Below the pieces are notes generated by a model. It ran no database searches and was not told the origin of the DNA. It worked only from the letters and a program-made list of their open reading frames with translations. From a virus, in the IMG/VR virus record IMGVR_UViG_3300046786_000331, positions 64,001 to 128,000 of that record: a stretch of 64,000 nt of DNA. The stretch is one strand, 5' to 3'. Shown piece after piece: positions 326 through 49,127 of this stretch. Within the stretch, counting starts at the first letter, position 1; each line of letters starts with the position of its first letter. Both the position numbers and the translations under genes were made by a program.

Positions 326-417
326 GCCAGCGAGACTTGGTAGTCAGAGAGTCCTTATAAGACTTTTAGCGCCAGATTAGCGTTCTTGAGTGGGTTCGAT
401 TCCCACCGCTGGTACCA
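326..417 (+). tRNA. Non-canonical tRNA, anticodon TAT (nominal Ile), long variable arm
   Basis: GCCAGCG/CGCTGGT acceptor, 4-nt D-loop, loop CTTATAA, ~22-nt variable region, T-arm, ACCA. Confidence 0.8.
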
Positions 418-3942: not shown

Positions 3943-4188
3943 GTGGCTAGATATACATCAGAAGCAGCAGTAGAAGCAATTGGAAACAGATTTAACCTAG
4001 TGCTAGCCGCTAGTCAACGAACCCGTGAACTTAAACGAGGTCATGCACAACTTGTAGACGGTAAAGACGCAAGTTTTAACGTTACAGCTTTGCGTGAAAT
4101 CGAAGCAGGCAAATATACAATGAAAGACTACTTGGATTCGATTCCAAGAAAACAAAAAGGACGTAGAAATGAATTTGACATTACGTAA
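3943..4188 (+). CDS. rpoZ: RNA polymerase omega subunit homolog
   Basis: GTG after AAGGA; MAR...NRFNLVLAASQRTREL...TALREIEAG. Confidence 0.9.
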   Translation: MARYTSEAAVEAIGNRFNLVLAASQRTRELKRGHAQLVDGKDASFNVTALREIEAGKYTMKDYLDSIPRKQKGRRNEFDIT

Positions 4189-4744
4189 GGCAAACGCTAT
4201 CCAGAATAGCATCAACGAGGCAATCAAAGGCATCGAGATTAAGACAACTGTAGAACTAAACGAGTTCCAAGCAGTTGAGGCAGAGTTGCAAAAAGCAAAC
4301 ACAACATTGTTTGCAAATGACGCTCGCCGTCAAAAGCTGTTGTTGGCTTTGTATAACATTCGCGGGCTAGTTGGCACTGCGAACGCTAGTGCAGGTATTG
4401 ACCTGAGCCTAGCAAAGGCAGCGTTTATTGATAAACGCATTGCACAGCTCGACGAGCTAGCAAAGGCAGAAGTTATCACTGATCTTGCAGTGATTACGGG
4501 TAAGCTAGACAAGATTAAAAATGACAAGAGTGAAACTGCTCGTAGTCGTATCTACGGATACAATGACACAGTTTCAACTAGTGTTGTAAGTGCTGAGCAA
4601 TCAGCATCGATTAAGAATGAGATTAAAAATCTCAAGAAGCAAAAACAAAAACTCAATGACGAAGTTCTTGAGTTAAACATCAAGACAGAGATTCCTTTGT
4701 CAGATGATGTAGTGGCAACACTAACAGCTGAAGGCTTAATCTAA
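4169..4744 (+). CDS. Long coiled-coil protein (resembles DIP1984-like family)
   Basis: All-helical heptad pattern; C-terminal KKQKQKLNDEVLELNIKTEI; family resemblance by eye only. Confidence 0.75.
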   Translation: MNLTLRKANAIQNSINEAIKGIEIKTTVELNEFQAVEAELQKANTTLFANDARRQKLLLALYNIRGLVGTANASAGIDLSLAKAAFIDKRIAQLDELAKAEVITDLAVITGKLDKIKNDKSETARSRIYGYNDTVSTSVVSAEQSASIKNEIKNLKKQKQKLNDEVLELNIKTEIPLSDDVVATLTAEGLI

Positions 4745-6997: not shown

Positions 6998-7573
6998 ATG
7001 CACACAGTAATAGACCAAAACGATATTTTTCGAAAGTTTAATTTTAGTTCCGTGATTACACCGGAAGATAATCAAGAAGCCATAGGCATTATAAAAAGTA
7101 TTATTGCCGACGGAAACTATTTTACTAATTCTCCAAAATATCAAACAAAAGAAAATATTTTTGCTAGACAGGAATCTGTATGGTTAAAGTATAGAATGAG
7201 TTTTTTGTTTAGTGTGTTTATGTACTTGGGTCGTGAAGTTAAGGTATCAAATATGATGGCCTGGAGTTTCATGACAAATCTCGAAGGTGCAGAAGATAGA
7301 GAAAAATTGTGGCATAATCATTGGCATCCACAAAATCCAAATAACAAAATGTTAAGCGGAATCTTTTATCTTCACATTCCAGAGAATGTACAAGACAGAG
7401 ATTATTGCGGAACAGAAATGGCTCCCAATGGTCCTACCGGTGACGGTAAATACTTCGTTAAACCAACTGATGGAAATTGGTTAGTTTATCCAAGTAATCA
7501 ATGGCATAGACCCGGCATTGTGCAAAGCAATGATTATAGGTTTATTTTAGCTGTTGATGTAGAATATCAATAA
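6998..7573 (+). CDS. Putative 2OG-Fe(II) oxygenase
   Basis: HNH...LSGIFYL...YPS..WH...RFILA. Confidence 0.7.
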   Translation: MHTVIDQNDIFRKFNFSSVITPEDNQEAIGIIKSIIADGNYFTNSPKYQTKENIFARQESVWLKYRMSFLFSVFMYLGREVKVSNMMAWSFMTNLEGAEDREKLWHNHWHPQNPNNKMLSGIFYLHIPENVQDRDYCGTEMAPNGPTGDGKYFVKPTDGNWLVYPSNQWHRPGIVQSNDYRFILAVDVEYQ

Positions 7574-8515: not shown

Positions 8516-9976
8516 ATGGATGTTGTATTATGGAATGCGGGACCGGATTATACCCCCTATACAATTTTTAGAACATTAGGCCCATATAAAATTTCTCATG
8601 CAACAAGAAATGCAGGTTACACTTCGCAGGTTATCGATCATGTTAATTGGATGACTGAAGAGGAGTTGTATAACTGTACAATTAAGTTTGTTGACAACGA
8701 AACAACGCTTCTTGGTATTTCCACAACATTCTTAATGGCTGGTACTCATGAACTGCCTGCACACGCATTAAATGTCTTACATCGAATCACAGAAGAGTTT
8801 CCTAAAATACATGTTGTGTTTGGCGGCTATCAGGCAAGAGATCCGACCTTAAGAAACATCATTAGGGCCAAGTACTCTGTTATATTAGAGTACGGTGAAG
8901 ATACCTTTGTTGAGTTATTAGAATATCACAAAGGTAAAGGCAAGTTGCCTCCTTTCACATTGATTACAAGACCCTGGGGCAACGTAAAAGTTTTCAAAAC
9001 TCCCAAGGTACAAAAATTCGATATCGAAAAAGACAATCATTTGTTCACTGATCAAGATTGTATTCTTCCCAACGAAACACTGCCTATTGAAATCAGTAGA
9101 GGCTGTATTTTCAAATGTAAGTTTTGTAATCACTTAATGCTAGGGCGAGGTAAATTAGATTACCTTCGAAGCATGGAATGTGTAAAACAAGAGTTGATTC
9201 ACAATTACGAGAAGTGGAACATTACAAACTATTACATCATTTGTGATACGTTTAATGACACTGAGTATAAGATGCAAGAGTGGCATAAGATGGTAACGTC
9301 ATTGCCTTTCAAGATACAATATACTGCATACCTAAGAGCAGACTTATTAGACAGATATCCAGATGTTCCTTATCTTTTAAAAGAGTCAGGACTGATATCT
9401 GGATTCCACGGAATTGAAACTCTAAGTCAACACGGATCAACAGTCATCGGAAAAGGATGGAGTGGCAAGAAAGCCAAGGACTATATTCCTAAACTCTATC
9501 ACGATATCTGGGGTGGTGAAGTTTTTCAAACCTTGAGTTTTATTGTTGGCTTGCCCGGGGATACTAGAGAAACATTTGTTGATACATTAGATTGGTTTGA
9601 GCAGAATGATTTACATCACATGGCTATTCACAATCTAGGAATCAACAACAATAAGTTTAACAAGCATCTAAGTGAGTTTGACTTAAATGCTGAAAGCTAT
9701 GGTTATACGTTTCCTTGGCCCGAGCGTCCGTGGGCATGGAAAAATGATCAATGGGATCATGATCAAGTAGAAGCGTTTGTTAAAGAACAACAACCTAGAA
9801 TCGGAAAAATATCTGCATGGTATGGTTCGTGGGTTACACTAATGTTGATGCAATACGGGTTTGATAAGAGCTTGTTTAAAAAGGAAGCATCTAGAACAGC
9901 ATTTACAGTACCTCAGTTAAATAGTTTAGCGAAAGAACAAATTCAGCGTTATATTAAAAAAATATTAGAACTATGA
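8516..9976 (+). CDS. B12-binding-type radical SAM protein
   Basis: SRGCIFKCKFC (CxxxCxxC), N-terminal GISTTF...VFGG, GIET, FIVGLPGDT. Confidence 0.85.
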   Translation: MDVVLWNAGPDYTPYTIFRTLGPYKISHATRNAGYTSQVIDHVNWMTEEELYNCTIKFVDNETTLLGISTTFLMAGTHELPAHALNVLHRITEEFPKIHVVFGGYQARDPTLRNIIRAKYSVILEYGEDTFVELLEYHKGKGKLPPFTLITRPWGNVKVFKTPKVQKFDIEKDNHLFTDQDCILPNETLPIEISRGCIFKCKFCNHLMLGRGKLDYLRSMECVKQELIHNYEKWNITNYYIICDTFNDTEYKMQEWHKMVTSLPFKIQYTAYLRADLLDRYPDVPYLLKESGLISGFHGIETLSQHGSTVIGKGWSGKKAKDYIPKLYHDIWGGEVFQTLSFIVGLPGDTRETFVDTLDWFEQNDLHHMAIHNLGINNNKFNKHLSEFDLNAESYGYTFPWPERPWAWKNDQWDHDQVEAFVKEQQPRIGKISAWYGSWVTLMLMQYGFDKSLFKKEASRTAFTVPQLNSLAKEQIQRYIKKILEL

Positions 9977-11109
9977 TACCCGAGATAAGTTACCCAAATG
10001 TGTTAGTACCCGTTGCGTTTCCAGAGGATCCTCTGTTAGACAAGGCATCGGTATTGTCTCAATTTGACAATAACACAGGGTTACAGGTATTGCATCTTAA
10101 AGAAGATATCCTTAAACCAGATGTAGTAAAGATGCTTGCTGACAGAAATCTGTCAATAGATAAGATAGATGTTTGGCGCTGGAACCTATCAATGACTAGA
10201 GGACAACCACCGCACACTGATGGCGGCTACGGAGATACAAAAGGTAGAAAGGTTGGACTGAATTGGTCATTGGCTCCTGATAATAGCAGTATCGACTTTT
10301 ACGATACTGCGTATGGTACTCCACAATTCGAAGCCATTGAAGATAGAAGCCATACTTTTTGGAAGATGGCTGAAGGCACTAAGCCGTTAGTTTCGTGGCG
10401 CAATAGATATCCCTCAGTTATTAATACTCAAACACCACATGCTATCACTGGACCCGAGGGTGAGTTTCGTTATAGCATGACAATAAAGTTCGTAGGAAAT
10501 CCTAGCTTCGACGAAGTAATTTCTAATTTGTGGGATTTACGATTAGATACTGATTGCTGGCCATTAAAAATGTCAGATGAAGAAGTTGAGATTGTTAAAC
10601 AAGAAGTAATCAAATTAGAAAAACTTCCAAACGTTGTTCAGAATGTAGGAGAGAAAATTGCTTCTTATAAGCTGCCTATTGTTCCTGATAGTTTGCTGGT
10701 AAAAACAATAGAAAAATACTGTAAGAGAAAATTTAAATCTTTTCGAATTTTTCATATGCAACCAGGTGTAAGAGCCGAGATGCATGTTGACTATGATCAA
10801 TGGCTTAAAGTTATTCCTGGATATGCTTTAAACTTTCCATTGTTTGGCTGCGAAGATAGCAGCGTAGAATTTTTTAGAAATCTTGGTGATCAAGAAGCTA
10901 GATCGCACGAAAAGTCCGGAGTGGGCGGATATCTATATCCCACAGATCCTAATAAGGTGTTTTTAAATCATACATTGTATATGTTAGAGCCACATCTTAT
11001 TAGAGTTAACGTTCCACACTTAGTTGATAATTTTTCTAATCATGAAAGAAAGATTTTAAGTGTGCGATTCTTTGAAGAAGAAAACGACCTCCCTTCAAAC
11101 ATAATTTAG
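9973..11109 (+). CDS. Tandem two-domain cupin/2OG oxygenase-like protein
   Basis: PHTD...PHAI...RYS and MHVD...PHLV...RKILS. Confidence 0.7.
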   Translation: MIPEISYPNVLVPVAFPEDPLLDKASVLSQFDNNTGLQVLHLKEDILKPDVVKMLADRNLSIDKIDVWRWNLSMTRGQPPHTDGGYGDTKGRKVGLNWSLAPDNSSIDFYDTAYGTPQFEAIEDRSHTFWKMAEGTKPLVSWRNRYPSVINTQTPHAITGPEGEFRYSMTIKFVGNPSFDEVISNLWDLRLDTDCWPLKMSDEEVEIVKQEVIKLEKLPNVVQNVGEKIASYKLPIVPDSLLVKTIEKYCKRKFKSFRIFHMQPGVRAEMHVDYDQWLKVIPGYALNFPLFGCEDSSVEFFRNLGDQEARSHEKSGVGGYLYPTDPNKVFLNHTLYMLEPHLIRVNVPHLVDNFSNHERKILSVRFFEEENDLPSNII

Positions 11110-11298: not shown

Positions 11299-11529
11299 AT
11301 GTATAAAGTAAACGGAAAAAACGTAATGTATGAAGTGCATACATTAGATGAAGCAATGAAGTGGGCAAAGCAAATGAATGAGTTTGTTACTATTGTAGGT
11401 GACGACTTTGAAGTATGTGGAATGTTCGGAGTAGACAGCATCAAGGACGGAAAGTGTCCAGACGGTGTTGCATACGATTGGAACAAGGCATCACGTATCG
11501 GAAGAGTAAAGAAAGAACGAGTAGTATAA
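11299..11529 (+). CDS. Hypothetical protein
   Basis: ORF directly after promoter, coupled to pth2. Confidence 0.75.
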   Translation: MYKVNGKNVMYEVHTLDEAMKWAKQMNEFVTIVGDDFEVCGMFGVDSIKDGKCPDGVAYDWNKASRIGRVKKERVV

Positions 11530-11909
11530 TGGAACACAAGCAAGTCATTGTAATGCGTAAGGATTTAAACATGCGAAAGGGCAAGTTAGTTGCTCAAGGA
11601 GCTCATGCTTCTCTTGGCGCAATTTTAAGTCTTTGTAAGCAGGACGGAGACAAGCTAATTCTTGAAATGGACGAACGTACTAGGCCTTGGCTTACAGGAC
11701 GTTTCAAGAAAATTTGTGTTTATGTAAACACTGAGCAAGAGTTATTAGATATTCATCAGGAAGCAAAACTGCATGGACTAGTAACCAGCCTTATACAAGA
11801 TGCAGGACTAACAGAATTTGGTGGTGTTAAAACATATACCGCTGTTGCAGTAGGTCCGGATCGAGAAGATAGAATCGATGCAGTTTGTAAACATTTACCG
11901 TTATATTAA
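11529..11909 (+). CDS. pth2: Peptidyl-tRNA hydrolase type 2
   Basis: KQVIVMRKDLNMRKGKLVAQGAHAS...IQDAGLTE...TAVAVGP...HLPLY. Confidence 0.92.
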   Translation: MEHKQVIVMRKDLNMRKGKLVAQGAHASLGAILSLCKQDGDKLILEMDERTRPWLTGRFKKICVYVNTEQELLDIHQEAKLHGLVTSLIQDAGLTEFGGVKTYTAVAVGPDREDRIDAVCKHLPLY

Positions 11910-11919
11910 GGAGAACCAT

Positions 11920-12597
11920 ATGAAACGTGTAATCGAAATTCGTGCCGCAGAAGGTGGCGAAGATAGTAAGTTATTTGTAAGTGATCTCGCGACTGCTTAC
12001 AGCAAATTAGGAATGAAGCTGGGCTGAACTACCCGCCTGATAGATGTGCGTCAAGGTGAATGTAGTTTAGAAGTTCAGGGCGCAGATTTATCCGGCTTAG
12101 ATAACGAGCCAGGTGGACATAGGATACAGCGAGTTCCACCAACCGAAAGGAAGGGGCGTGTCCATACAAGCACAGTAACGGTTGCAGTCATAGACTCCGA
12201 CACAGAAATTGGATCTGTTTCTATACTAGAAAAAGATTTAAAAATCGAATGGTATAGCGGTACTGGTGCTGGAGGTCAATACAGGAACAAACATCAAAAC
12301 TCATGCCGGATAACTCACATACCTACAGGTACTGTAGCTAAAGCAGAGTGCAGAAGTAGGACAAATAGTCTTGAAGAAGCTATGGCTGCTATACAACAAC
12401 GAGTTGACACAGCAGCTAATAGGCAGTACACTAATAGTATCGCTAGCAATAGAAAGCAACAAGTTGGCTCCGGAATGCGAGGAGACAAAATTCGCACTTA
12501 TCGCTTTCAAGACGATACTGTGCAGGATCACGTAACCGGTAAAAAAGCAAACGCTAAAAAAGTGTTATCTGGTAACTTTGACTTACTTTGGAACTAA
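11920..12597 (+). CDS. N-truncated RF1-like class I release factor with in-frame TGA at 12025-12027
   Basis: AAGGAG SD, ATG 11920; IEIRAAEGG, G-stop at the usual GW position, HRIQRVPPTE..GRVHTS (PxT), GAGGQ, RIRTY-like KIRTY. Confidence 0.85.
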
Positions 12598-12816
12598 ATG
12601 GCAAAAGACGATATCATTGAATTGACAGGCACAGTTGAAGAAGTATTGCCGGGCAATATGTTTAAAGTGAAGGTAGACAACCTTCCTAATCTATTGCTCT
12701 GCTATACTAGCGGAAAACTTAAACAACACAAGATTAGAATTATTCTCGGTGACAAAATTAAGTTAGAAGTTAGTCCATACGACCTCACTAAAGGTCGTGT
12801 AACATACAGATTATAA
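12598..12816 (+). CDS. infA: Translation initiation factor IF-1
   Basis: MAKDDIIE..G.V.EVLP...SGKLK...IRII.GD...EVSPYDLTKGRVTYR. Confidence 0.95.
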   Translation: MAKDDIIELTGTVEEVLPGNMFKVKVDNLPNLLLCYTSGKLKQHKIRIILGDKIKLEVSPYDLTKGRVTYRL

Positions 12817-21631: not shown

Positions 21632-22210
21632 AGCGTAACTAGAATCAGTTGAGTCAATATCAACAATCAAGTGTATTCTTTCTACATTTGAATTGTTTTC
21701 GGCAGCATGTAAATCTCTATTAGCAAGCTGGCACAGCATGCCTTCCGGCATGTGGGTAGGGTTAGATAGTCCAGGACCGAAAAACACCATGTCTTGATGT
21801 GTTATAAACGGTACATGAAACCTATAATGAGCTTGGAAGTACGGACCTGGATCAATATGTTCTCCAATTTTACCCCCTGGTAATAATTTTACAAGCATAA
21901 TTCGTCCTAGTCTAGATCCATTTACTCTATCGTAGATCCAATCGATTAGATCACCAACAGCAGGATACATTGCTCTAGCCCTTGTGTCCATGCAATCAAC
22001 ATAAACAGATAACGCTTCGACAGTATGCGGAGTACCCCAAGGAGCTTTATGCACTCTTAAGTGATTAGTAATGCTGGTTGCAAAGACAGCAGCTTCGCCG
22101 CGTCTATCTGGAATCGGTAAATCATTCCAATCAATATTTAGAACTTCGTTTTTAGCGTTAATAAATAGTTGAGCAGGAACTGTATCTATAATTTTTACAT
22201 GAGGTTTCAT
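21623..22210 (-). CDS. Aspartyl/asparaginyl beta-hydroxylase-like protein
   Basis: LLPGGKIGEHID...RFHVP...HAAEN...RIHLIVD. Confidence 0.85.
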   Translation of the reverse strand: MKPHVKIIDTVPAQLFINAKNEVLNIDWNDLPIPDRRGEAAVFATSITNHLRVHKAPWGTPHTVEALSVYVDCMDTRARAMYPAVGDLIDWIYDRVNGSRLGRIMLVKLLPGGKIGEHIDPGPYFQAHYRFHVPFITHQDMVFFGPGLSNPTHMPEGMLCQLANRDLHAAENNSNVERIHLIVDIDSTDSSYALF

Positions 22211-26616: not shown

Positions 26617-27194
26617 ACACTGAACTTTACTCTAAATATGCCTGGACCCCCGAGTTCCAAAAGCTCAGCGAATGGGGTACACATCTAATAGATGAGGAAA
26701 GAGCCCTGGGTATAGCTCAATTTACAAAAGAAGGACATAATATTGTAAATCGAGTCCTTGATAGAGATTTGCCTAAATGGGTAGTTGATCTGTTTAATGT
26801 TCCTATTAGTCATGTGCAGTTATTTTCTGCACAACCGCATGCTATAGGATCAGTACACAAAGACGGATCAGATAGATTGTGTGCATTTAACATTCCTGTT
26901 AAAAATGCGGATCAAGGAATAATGGAATGGTTAGATGGACCAGTAGAAGGGCGCCTATTAGAGCTTGCCCACACGTCTATTAGATTGCTAAAAGATCGAA
27001 ATGATCGATTAAAAATGGATACTTCTGCCCAAATTCTTCTAGATTTTCCAACATTGATTAATACAAATGAATGGCACAGAGTTGATAATTCTGCAAATAG
27101 TCGCTGGAGACATGTTCTAAGTATTAGATTTTTAAATAATCCCGGCTATCAAGAAGTCAAAGATTCACTATCTGGCTTTTTAAAAAGTGCATAG
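26613..27194 (+). CDS. Cupin/2OG oxygenase-like protein
   Basis: VHKDG...AFNIP...WHRV...RHVLSIRF. Confidence 0.75.
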   Translation: MNTELYSKYAWTPEFQKLSEWGTHLIDEERALGIAQFTKEGHNIVNRVLDRDLPKWVVDLFNVPISHVQLFSAQPHAIGSVHKDGSDRLCAFNIPVKNADQGIMEWLDGPVEGRLLELAHTSIRLLKDRNDRLKMDTSAQILLDFPTLINTNEWHRVDNSANSRWRHVLSIRFLNNPGYQEVKDSLSGFLKSA

Positions 27195-29235: not shown

Positions 29236-30129
29236 ATGAATCACACAGACTTGTTTGGATGTAAGTATCCTATAATATCGGCACCTATGAATAAAGTGTC
29301 GGATTTAAAATTAGCAATAGCTTGCCACAACGCAGGTGTGTTCCCTAGTCTATCCTTGTATACTTTTTATGTTATCGATACACTGAGGTTAGATTTATTT
29401 GACACAGCATTAAAAGAGTTTAAATCTCAAACAGGATCCAATAAAATCTTAGTAAGTTTGCTAACATCTGATCTACTCGATAAACAAATTCAAAATATAC
29501 TAATCGAAAATCAAGTAAGTCATTTAGAAGTTATCGATGATAAAACTGTTGTTGACAGCGATGTTTGGAATACAGTAGTTAACGAAACAAAGTTTTTGCA
29601 GAGTAAAAATATTAAGATATTTCTCAAAGCATTAACATCTAGAAACACTTCTCTTGAAGTTGACGGAATAATTTTGAAAGGTAGTAAGGGTGCAGGACGT
29701 GGAGCAGAGTATGTTGACATTGACGAAGAACTAATCCATATCAAGAAAAAGTTTCCTAACATGCCCGTGGTAATGTCTGGTGGGATTACTTGTTCTGCAG
29801 ATATACAAAAGTATTTAGATTTAGGTTGTAGTGCAGTTGCTATAGGAACATTGTTTGCTGCGGCTGAAGAAAGTCCTATCAGTGTCGAAAGCAAACAAAA
29901 GATGATAGATTCAACGTATTCGGATGTAGTAAGATTTGGAAAGGTAAATCAAAATGCTTTAGTTTTTAGACCTTTACCGAATGACGATTATAATAATACA
30001 GTATCATTATTGCACGGGATTAGAAACCCCAAGCAGGGTATTATTTTTGCAGGCAAAGGAATTAATAATATTGAGAAGATACTGCCAATGAAAGATATTG
30101 TAAATGAATTAGTAAAGGATTTGAAATAA
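29236..30129 (+). CDS. Nitronate monooxygenase/FabK-like flavoenzyme
   Basis: YPIISAPM, GAG, SGGI, AVAIGTLF..EES, FAGKG. Confidence 0.85.
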   Translation: MNHTDLFGCKYPIISAPMNKVSDLKLAIACHNAGVFPSLSLYTFYVIDTLRLDLFDTALKEFKSQTGSNKILVSLLTSDLLDKQIQNILIENQVSHLEVIDDKTVVDSDVWNTVVNETKFLQSKNIKIFLKALTSRNTSLEVDGIILKGSKGAGRGAEYVDIDEELIHIKKKFPNMPVVMSGGITCSADIQKYLDLGCSAVAIGTLFAAAEESPISVESKQKMIDSTYSDVVRFGKVNQNALVFRPLPNDDYNNTVSLLHGIRNPKQGIIFAGKGINNIEKILPMKDIVNELVKDLK

Positions 30130-47646: not shown

Positions 47647-47836
47647 GATTAAACGACTGTTGCATCTTCTAAACGAAGACAATCGTTACACGTTTAATCG
47701 CATGTATGCTCCAAATAATTTAGATCAAGATGTTGATTTAACGGTTGACAAGATGCCGGCAAAACAGTTATCATGGGCATTGCAACAATGTCAAAACTCC
47801 TACTACAGACTTTTTAAGGTTATTCAAAGTGCTTAA
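47621..47836 (+). CDS. Hypothetical protein
   Basis: ATG at 47621. Confidence 0.6.
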   Translation: MTPKQKRVEIKRLLHLLNEDNRYTFNRMYAPNNLDQDVDLTVDKMPAKQLSWALQQCQNSYYRLFKVIQSA

Positions 47837-48854
47837 ACGAATCGGCTTCGCCTGCAAACTTATCGACGGTCCTAGCCAAATTGATGGCATTAAGCAGACT
47901 GATAACTGCAAACAATATAATACCAACACCACAACTGTTGCCTGGTTAAATAGACAATCGCGGGCCGTTGCTGAAGAAAAGTTGTGGGACTTAATGAAAC
48001 ACAACATCGAAGCATGTCGCCTGCTTGTTAAAAAGGTAGGCACTTTTGATGAAAATCTTAGAATGGTACGACTCAGTAGCGATATACTTCCTGTTTTCAC
48101 TCACAGTGATTGGGGGTTCTTTTATGGGCTACCCGATGTTAGAAGTTATTGCGAAAGAGAATTTAGAAAAGTGGGAGATTTGGCTCGCCAGAATAACGTT
48201 CGCCTCAGTTTTCATCCCGGTCAGTTTACTGTGCTTGCATCTGCTAATCCAGGTATTGTAGATCGTAGCATTGAAGAATTTGAATATCATGCACTAATGG
48301 CTGCATGGATGGGCTACGGACAAACTTTCCAGGACCTTAAAATTAACGTGCATATTTCGGGCCAGCAAGGTCCTGACGGTATTCGTAAGGCATATCAACG
48401 CCTTAGCCCCGAAGCACGTAACACACTCACAATTGAAAATGAAGAAATTACACACAACCTTGAAACCTGTTTGGAACTTGCTGATCTCGTTCCAATTGTA
48501 TTGGACATACACCATCACTGGATTAACTCGGGGGAATATATTGACCCTACTGACGAACGTGTTCAACGGGTTATTGACAGTTGGCGCGGTGTGCGCCCTA
48601 CTATTCATTACAGTGTATCTCGCGAAGATGTACTCGTTAATCATGCCACTGGACTCCGTCCCGATCTTCCGACCCTCCTAACAGAAGGTCACAAGAAAGC
48701 AAAGCTCAGGGCACATTCAAACTTCTATTGGAATACAGAAGTTAACAAATGGGCACTGAGCTTTAGGGAAGTTGCAGATATCATGTGCGAAAGCAAGGCT
48801 AAGAATCTAGCCAGTTTCGCACTCTACGAAGAAGCTAAACTATTAGGCCTGTGA
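47829..48854 (+). CDS. uvsE: UV damage endonuclease
   Basis: RIGFACK, RLSS, RLSFHPGQF, NVH, IEN, LDIHHH, RAHS, ESKAK. Confidence 0.93.
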   Translation: MLKRIGFACKLIDGPSQIDGIKQTDNCKQYNTNTTTVAWLNRQSRAVAEEKLWDLMKHNIEACRLLVKKVGTFDENLRMVRLSSDILPVFTHSDWGFFYGLPDVRSYCEREFRKVGDLARQNNVRLSFHPGQFTVLASANPGIVDRSIEEFEYHALMAAWMGYGQTFQDLKINVHISGQQGPDGIRKAYQRLSPEARNTLTIENEEITHNLETCLELADLVPIVLDIHHHWINSGEYIDPTDERVQRVIDSWRGVRPTIHYSVSREDVLVNHATGLRPDLPTLLTEGHKKAKLRAHSNFYWNTEVNKWALSFREVADIMCESKAKNLASFALYEEAKLLGL

Positions 48855-49127
48855 CTTAGGAGCTTTTGGCTTCTTAGGTGCAGCAGGCTTTTTCTGTGCT
48901 GGCTTCTTTTCACCGGCAGGCTTCTTAGCAAATTGTTGCTTTTTAGGTGCTGGTTTTTTCTTCTCTGGTGCTGTAGCAACAACAGGTGCAGGCGCAGCTT
49001 CTACAACTGGCGCTGGTTCTGCAACTGGAGCAGCTTCTACAACTGGTGCTACTTCAACTTTATATGGGGCTTCCGCAGTTTGTTCTGCTGGCTTACCGCC
49101 AAATAGTTTCTTTAAAAATCCGATCAT
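48843..49127 (-). CDS. Ala/Pro/Lys-rich low-complexity protein
   Basis: AAGGAG SD; MIGFLKKLFG then APVVE and KKPA repeats. Confidence 0.75.
   Translation of the reverse strand: MIGFLKKLFGGKPAEQTAEAPYKVEVAPVVEAAPVAEPAPVVEAAPAPVVATAPEKKKPAPKKQQFAKKPAGEKKPAQKKPAAPKKPKAPKSQA

Follow-up and report, generated by a model that had tools for sequence, protein, structure and literature searches.

Introduction

How can a release factor be made from a gene that carries a stop codon in its own reading frame, and why would a phage keep the stop? The question is raised by a locus in the window, by which the whole stretch of 64,000 nucleotides analysed here is meant, and which belongs to a viral contig of 145,727 bases from freshwater metagenomes. 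CheckV rates the completeness of the contig at 41%, so the phage is probably of jumbo size. A frame of 225 codons runs from ATG 11920 to the TAA at 12595-12597 with a single internal TGA (12025-12027). The initial annotation read it as a phage release factor gene that starts at ATG 11920 behind AAGGAG and not at the GTG 12046 of the gene track. This start is borne out by the homologues, nearly all of which have AAGGAG or AAGGA before the ATG, and the GTG is incidental. We propose that the locus encodes an RF1-derived class-I release factor without domain 1, whose synthesis probably depends on programmed readthrough of the UGA at codon 36. The features are collected in Table 1.

Table 1. Features of the release factor locus, with positions in the window
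Feature	Position	Strand	Description
Pth2-type peptidyl-tRNA hydrolase gene, upstream neighbour	11415-11909	+	Pfam PTH2, E = 1.4e-30
Shine-Dalgarno sequence AAGGAG	11908-11913	+	6 nt 5′ of the ATG; seen in the sequence
Release factor ORF, part 1 (35 codons)	11920-12024	+	Helix-5 tip region (EIRAAEGGEDSKLF) of RF1-like domain 2; from the translation
Hairpin enclosing the UGA, as drawn in the initial annotation	12024-12070	+	12024-12032 with 12062-12070, plus an inner stem; can form here, weakly conserved
In-frame UGA, codon 36	12025-12027	+	Conserved Trp position; context GGC UGA A
Release factor ORF, part 2	12028-12597	+	Remaining domain 2 (PPT motif), GGQ domain and domain 4; TAA at 12595-12597
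Possible three-way junction	12033-12116	+	P1 12033-12038 with 12111-12116; P3 12094-12098 with 12106-12110; core stem between; basal part less certain
Core conserved stem-loop	12039-12092	+	12039-12052 with 12079-12092, 13 bp with single-base bulges; apical 12053-12078 variable
IF-1 gene, downstream neighbour	12598-12816	+	Pfam eIF-1a/IF-1, E = 2.1e-18; its ATG abuts the release factor TAA

Gene neighbourhood

The neighbours of the release factor gene form a translation module of a tRNA array, Pth2 and IF-1. The release factor gene follows closely on the array (23 tRNA genes within the window, 34 in the contig), and the gene directly before it is Pth2, not a separately encoded domain 1. At the junction with IF-1, which reads TAAATG (window 12595-12600), the IF-1 gene has only a weak GGA upstream, and its translation may be coupled in this phage to ribosomes that have passed the UGA. 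Such coupling was rejected as a part of the device, because IF-1 follows the release factor gene in only some homologues.

Two other observations concern the surrounding genes. At 92 nt, the tRNA-Ile(UAU) of window 326-417 is unusually long for a class-I tRNA and may have an insertion or intron; a similar copy of 90 nt occurs in the related contig G002 (24623-24712). Two groups of tRNA genes are separated by window 8516-11109, which encodes a radical SAM protein of 486 aa and a 378-aa protein without a Pfam match, possibly tRNA-modification enzymes.

Protein family of the factor

If the TGA is translated as Trp, Pfam finds the C-terminal half of PCRF (1.5e-21) and RF-1 (4.1e-19) in the product. 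The PCRF match begins at residue 4, and the first part of the ORF is strongly conserved at the protein level. Among the NCBIfam models, those for RF1 score 195-197 bits, against 118 for RF2 and 37.6 for PrfH. The alignment is confined to positions 107-334 of the 347 in the prfA model, which agrees with the absence of domain 1 noted in the initial annotation; the score of 196.7 bits lies below the RF1 equivalog cut-off of 400, and the N-terminal domain 1 of a full-length RF1 is lacking. In a comparison with solved structures the product aligns with residues 87-314 of Thermotoga maritima RF1, and HRIQRVPPTERKGRVHTS in the product aligns with HRVQRVPVTESGGRIHTS of that protein. The TGA had been placed where RF1 and RF2 normally have the Trp of ‘GW’, and it does fall on the Trp of ‘KGW’ in the T. 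maritima factor; of 60 full-length RF1-like hits, 54 have Trp in this column.

The elements by which RF1 reads stop codons are intact, namely the PxT motif (Gln-Arg-Val-Pro-Pro-Thr) and His-Thr-Ser, and GGQ is present as GAGGQ. The assignment to the RF1 type, first made from PxT, is thus upheld by the PPT and GGQ motifs together with the higher scores of the RF1 models over RF2, and the predicted specificity is for UAA and UAG.

The likeness to PrfH-type factors that had been suggested goes no further than the loss of domain 1. PrfH (RF-H) is also a class-I release factor homologue without this domain, but its model (TIGR03072, cut-off 166.65) reaches 37.6 bits here, covers residues 101-196 only and thereby just the GGQ domain, whereas the RF1 models match over the full length at up to 197 bits and the stop-reading motifs are kept. 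There is also no pairing with an RtcB-type ligase as is found with PrfH; the neighbours are Pth2 and IF-1, and the downstream gene differs among homologues. Judged by its sequence, the factor is RF1-derived and not a PrfH.

Conservation of the internal UGA

The TGA stands at the same codon in all 32 full-length homologues found in viral contigs (60-85% protein identity). The codons around it vary synonymously, with GGC or GGT before it and ACT, ACA, GCT, AAG, ATT or AGG after it. Among 1.8 billion protein representatives, a search returned many proteins that run uninterrupted for about 225 residues, and many others, about 180 residues long, whose start is just past the site. Four genes at 47-65% identity (L082, L083, L084 and L085) have TGA at the site, upstream of the called start, and so does L087 at 44% identity, in which the other Trp is TGG. 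Plain TGG is found in L081 (50% identity) and L088 (46%). In L089 (45%) the site is also TGG, and a TGA stands four codons further on. One further gene, L086 (P0031), was left out as its upstream region is unreadable in one frame.

The second position of the stop in L089 (551-1222, in the context TVD-TGA-IDE) looks like an independent placement of a stop in the same short region. The protein record P0035, a 91%-identical fragment, has W called at the site, as seen from the protein record alone. At a distance of about 2.4 kb, the uninterrupted gene of L081 has a neighbour in which kinase, phosphatase and RNA-ligase domains are fused (AAA_33, Metallophos, RNA_lig_T4_1; positions 1-1613 and 4001-4699), as in tRNA-repair-type enzymes.

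Rooted with full-length RF1, the tree places the short phage factors in a single clade. The genes that carry the UGA all fall in one subclade of it (SH-aLRT 90), mixed with rows that have TGG, Ala or Leu, and the core of this subclade comprises 12 rows, all with TGA and on long branches. GenBank phages have no close homologue: the best protein matches are below 41% identity, and the only DNA match is to the Pth2 gene of Ralstonia phage RsoM2USA.

The TGA is also unchanged in an independent DNA run (X5) and in two contigs from RNA libraries (X4, X9), with the reservation that contigs cannot show rare variants and that RNA libraries may contain DNA. As the TGA is shared by relatives, by distant genes and by independent runs, sequencing error and recent decay are excluded. 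Two of the checks proposed at the outset, on the TGA in homologues and on the sequence at 12025-12027, hence came out in favour of a real and old stop, the latter at the level of contigs. TadA edits A to I in the motif UACG. Editing of the UGA to UGG in this way was considered and rejected, since the context is not UACG and the RNA-library contigs, which would miss rare variants, keep TGA. On this comparative reading, the stop is a selected recoding signal.

Translation beyond the UGA

The segment after the TGA is open across deep divergence, without stops or frame-breaking indels (only codon-sized ones occur), and it is homologous to strands of RF1. Many homologues have no in-frame ATG, GTG or TTG for 36 to more than 100 codons past the TGA, so reinitiation cannot explain the gene. 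The N-terminal 35 residues carry the conserved helix-5 tip, by which RF1 reads the first base of the stop codon, which argues that the two parts of the ORF have to be joined. The frame is identical before and after the stop, with no +1 shift. Ribosome hopping is unlikely as well: take-off and landing codons do not match, the UGA being preceded by Gly in most genes but by Asp or Asn elsewhere, and the segment that would be skipped is kept as protein. Taken together, the comparisons indicate that the segment after the UGA is translated, and the earlier proposal that the full-length factor needs UGA readthrough stands, as the same frame continues under protein constraint and restart codons are absent in many homologues.

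The context of the stop was compared as well. In E. coli, termination at UGA is strongest when U comes next (UGAU). Among 30 distinct genes the internal UGA precedes A in 24 cases, G in 5 and C in 1, and never U, whereas T follows 89 of the 271 true TGA stops in these genomes. The absence of U lends modest support to readthrough, the genes being related to each other. An internal Shine-Dalgarno-like stimulator of the prfB kind is not found consistently across lineages.

RNA structure downstream of the UGA

The initial annotation held the UGA itself in a hairpin (Table 1). This hairpin can form here, and an RNA structure does accompany the stop; the drawn pairing is weakly conserved, and the conserved stem-loop lies 3′ of the UGA. 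Among 24 distinct homologues, 74% of the cells of the UGA-enclosing hairpin are paired (67% in its outer stem), and RNAalifold retains only CGCC/GGCG from it. In the 24-gene alignment the core stem-loop is paired in 89% of cells, as against 27-45% with slid partners, has 20 compensatory cells, and its covariation is reached in none of 500 shuffles. When four more distant genes are added (28 genes), 82% of the cells of the core helix are still paired and 8 of its 13 pairs carry changes in both partners, as with UA/AU in one pair and GC/AU/UA in a second. The apical part is the least conserved (47% paired). RNAalifold gives no consensus structure on 28 sequences that include the four most distant ones.

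The three-way junction is the minimum free energy fold of the window and of L028, L082 and L024. Its P1 is 74% paired without double changes; for P3 the figure is 81%, and both partners have changed in 3 of its pairs. An Rfam scan of 11850-12250 gave no match beyond a chance hit to a CRISPR repeat (E = 1.5).

Two other measures point to the same region. Within the close clade, synonymous diversity drops to 0.18-0.25 over codons 37-60, where the protein itself is conserved; every other well-conserved stretch examined has 0.32 or more. The lowered stretches extend over codons 34-60. The 96 nt from the UGA onwards are more stable than controls with permuted synonymous codons in 10 of 13 lineages (z from -1.7 to -2.9). 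No excess stability was detected in L027, L032, L085, L087 and L089, so the 3′ structure is not essential for every UGA-bearing gene. The two TGG homologues fold with z = -1.9 and -0.6 and are not a clean negative control. Given its wider distribution, the UGA is the older and more constant feature, and the 3′ structure an accessory of the core clade. The stem starts 5-11 nt downstream of the UGA, a distance at which RNA structures are known to stimulate recoding elsewhere.

Genetic code and tRNA genes

The genome uses the standard code: the contig is tiled by long ORFs, and 51 of its 188 called genes end in TGA, with the same picture in five related contigs, which bears out the earlier statement that the genome is not recoded. 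Among pairs of same-frame ORFs split by a TGA in the contig, no other convincing interrupted gene was found; the best candidates, at genome 13643-15400 and window 47745-49106, were rejected, as they look like neighbouring genes of the usual kind or like a UvdE domain that is already complete when the stop is reached. ARAGORN found no tRNA with a UCA anticodon and no selenocysteine tRNA in the six contigs G000 (the contig studied here) to G005, about 630 kb in total, of which G000-G004 are fragments; the search for a TCA-anticodon tRNA that had been proposed was thus negative in a sequence that covers only 41% of this genome.

Some unusual RNA genes were seen on the way. In G003 (7387-7461, in L067) a tRNA with anticodon CUA is labelled ‘Pyl’ by ARAGORN; it has mismatches in the anticodon stem and may be a false call, but if real it could suppress amber codons in a relative in which TAG otherwise serves as a stop. 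G005 (29414-29488, in L064) has a tRNA-like gene with a six-base anticodon loop (GUUGUA), to which ARAGORN gives no assignment. Permuted, two-piece tmRNA genes are called by ARAGORN in three jumbo contigs (G000 genome 25844-26269, outside the window, in L061; G003 10638-11029; G002 21731-22114), with tags that end in ALAA or LMAA. As tmRNAs of this form are typical of Alphaproteobacteria, some Betaproteobacteria and cyanobacteria, these genes may hint at the host.

Proposed mechanism

From the conserved UGA, the continuous frame, the affinity to RF1 and the conserved 3′ structure we infer the following course, in which Trp insertion, stimulation by the structure and dependence on RF2 are the conditional steps. 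The strong Shine-Dalgarno sequence would give efficient initiation. At the UGA most ribosomes would probably be released by host RF2 with a peptide of 35 residues, and a fraction would decode the UGA, most likely by near-cognate tRNA-Trp, which would restore the ancestral Trp and yield the 225-residue factor. With the UGA in the A site, the RNA element 5-11 nt 3′ of it would stand at the mRNA entry channel and probably raise the readthrough fraction. Since an RF1-type product should not read its own UGA, host RF2 would be the natural antagonist and the competition between tRNA-Trp and RF2 would set the output, which should rise when RF2 is limiting or tRNA-Trp is abundant. The regulatory logic would be indirect, as the RF1-type product is expected to give the UGA no direct feedback.

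What the device serves is a more tentative matter. It could be a sensor of termination capacity: when RF2 becomes limiting in infection, ribosomes would pause at the UGA, readthrough would follow and the RF1-type factor would be made. Such a factor would need no RF3-interacting domain and could take over termination at UAA and UAG (about 73% of the genes of this phage), sparing RF2 for UGA. This reading is possible, though less likely than not. If it is true, it would be a cross-regulatory, frameshift-free counterpart of prfB control in a large phage clade, and some phages may tune readthrough by a UGA-prone phage tRNA-Trp.

Alternative explanations

A fixed attenuator is an unlikely alternative, though the best of those considered: the leaky UGA would set a constant low fraction and so keep a potentially harmful release factor scarce, and nothing would be sensed. 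The conserved UGA and the strong Shine-Dalgarno sequence fit it equally well, overproduced release factors harm bacteria (PMC12421855), and some UGA-bearing lineages have no detectable stimulatory structure. A weak Shine-Dalgarno sequence or promoter would be simpler for this purpose, yet a consensus Shine-Dalgarno sequence, the UGA and a covarying 3′ element are all kept; moreover, UGA readthrough necessarily varies with RF2 and tRNA-Trp, which makes pure constancy unlikely.

It is less probable again that the phage times the factor by its own tRNAs, the UGA being read mainly by a readthrough-prone phage tRNA-Trp(CCA) or by an undetected UCA suppressor, and the factor appearing only after the tRNA array is expressed. 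The position of the gene just downstream of the array suits this idea, and the phage does encode its own tRNA-Trp (genome 61816-61892). The tRNA-Trp(CCA) genes of the jumbo contigs G000, G003 and G002 all have U11-A24, and the one of G002 (26684-26758, in L075) has in addition a U-U mismatch at the top of the anticodon stem, which leaves 27-43 unpaired and a stem of 4 bp. A24 is the change that converts E. coli tRNA-Trp into the Hirsh UGA suppressor, the same A is found in the tRNA-Trp of Mimivirus (PMC3521657), and in a 2026 survey both 4-bp anticodon stems and G24A promote UGA reading (PMC13092985). Against this, U11-A24 is an ordinary tRNA pair and G24A is frequent in natural bacterial tRNA-Trp according to the same survey (PMC13092985); the A24 and the 4-bp stem are therefore taken as a lead and not as evidence. 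No UCA tRNA occurs in the roughly 630 kb of related contigs. The 79-kb G005, which has terminal repeats and is rated complete, carries the UGA gene and five tRNA genes, none of them for Trp and none with UCA, so host decoding must suffice in that phage at least.

Insertion of selenocysteine, with the UGA and the downstream hairpin acting as a bacterial SECIS, is very improbable. The distance of the stem-loop formally fits the loose geometry of bacterial SECIS elements, but Cys is never found in the column among 95 homologues (RF1 has Trp there, and the short homologues have W, L, F, I, A or H). The apex, to which SelB binds in known SECIS elements, shows the weakest conservation of the hairpin (47% paired). 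No tRNA-Sec was found in G000-G005 and no Rfam match in the scanned region, and the UGA of L089 stands at another codon.

A broken or split gene (sequencing error, recent pseudogene, reinitiation at GTG 12046, or hopping), for which the 35-codon and about 183-codon ORFs reported by gene callers might speak, is the least credible and is already contradicted by the comparative data, given the TGA in dozens of independent assemblies, across deep divergence and in independent runs, the restart codons missing in many homologues, a conserved stop-codon-reading element in the N-terminal 35 residues, a post-UGA segment conserved as protein with codon-sized indels only, and a pre-UGA codon that is not always Gly, without matched take-off and landing codons.

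Significance and comparison with known systems

An RF1-derived clade of phage factors keeps an internal UGA down to about 45% identity, and its core clade adds a covarying 3′ RNA structure. If readthrough is true, the gene would be a rare natural case of structure-assisted stop-codon readthrough in a bacterial system, in which phages would meter their own termination factor against that of the host. It would also correct a systematic annotation error, by which gene callers report fragments of 35 and about 180 residues, and would offer a compact natural element for tunable UGA readthrough.

A full-text literature search found no description for phages of a release factor gene controlled by an interrupting UGA. 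Phage genes for RF1 and RF2 are listed in surveys of huge and of recoded phages, with no mention of an internal stop (PMC7162821; bioRxiv 10.1101/2021.08.26.457843), and a 2025 survey reports no recoding signal in prfA (PMC12421855). In the Jade phages, RF1 is part of a code-change module with a TGA suppressor tRNA and TrpRS (bioRxiv 10.1101/2021.08.26.457843). That module likewise ties a phage-encoded RF1 to UGA read as Trp; unlike the present gene, it is written in the standard code and serves a genome-wide recoding of late genes, whereas this genome is not recoded and the only internal UGA found is that of the release factor gene.

Stop-codon readthrough in RNA viruses is exemplified by the pseudoknot of MuLV and by UGA readthrough for Qbeta A1. 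In alphaviruses UGA readthrough occurs with an extended 3′ stem-loop (Firth et al. 2011, PMC3159437). A stop that is probably leaky and, in the core clade, a conserved RNA structure after a short spacer would be shared with these systems, as is the suppressed synonymous variation that marks the element. They differ in that a C-terminally extended second product is made there at a fixed ratio, while the short product here is a fragment of 35 residues that has no evident role, and the host is a bacterium.

The closest published analogue is the class-I release factor gene of the giant viruses, Mimivirus R726 and Megavirus mg280, for which UGA readthrough plus a +1 frameshift was described, with a viral tRNA-Trp carrying the Hirsh-like D-arm A as the proposed decoder (Jeudy et al. 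2012, PMC3521657); selenocysteine was judged unlikely for that gene (PMC3521657). In both cases a virus encodes the release factor and translation must pass an internal UGA. The Mimivirus factor is eRF1-like, of the eukaryotic and archaeal type, belongs to an amoeba virus, needs the +1 frameshift and has C after the UGA; the phage factor is a bacterial RF1-like protein without domain 1, whose gene would be expressed by readthrough only and has A or G after the UGA and a covarying 3′ stem-loop.

Recoding in a release factor gene is textbook translational autoregulation, known in bacteria only for RF2, where it acts by a +1 frameshift. The prfB gene of RF2 also has an early in-frame UGA (at codon 26, against codon 36 here), and its output depends on termination at this UGA. 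It differs by the sequence CUU UGA C, a Shine-Dalgarno-like stimulator 3 nt upstream, the +1 shift and a product that reads UGA and so gives direct feedback. The phage gene has no shift and no such motif, its context is GGC or GGU, UGA, then A or G, and any feedback would pass through host RF2; direct autoregulation as in prfB is not expected from it, since its motifs are of the RF1 type and RF1 does not read UGA. What is new here, if the proposal holds, is that recoding control would act by readthrough and not by frameshifting, in an RF1-derived phage factor.
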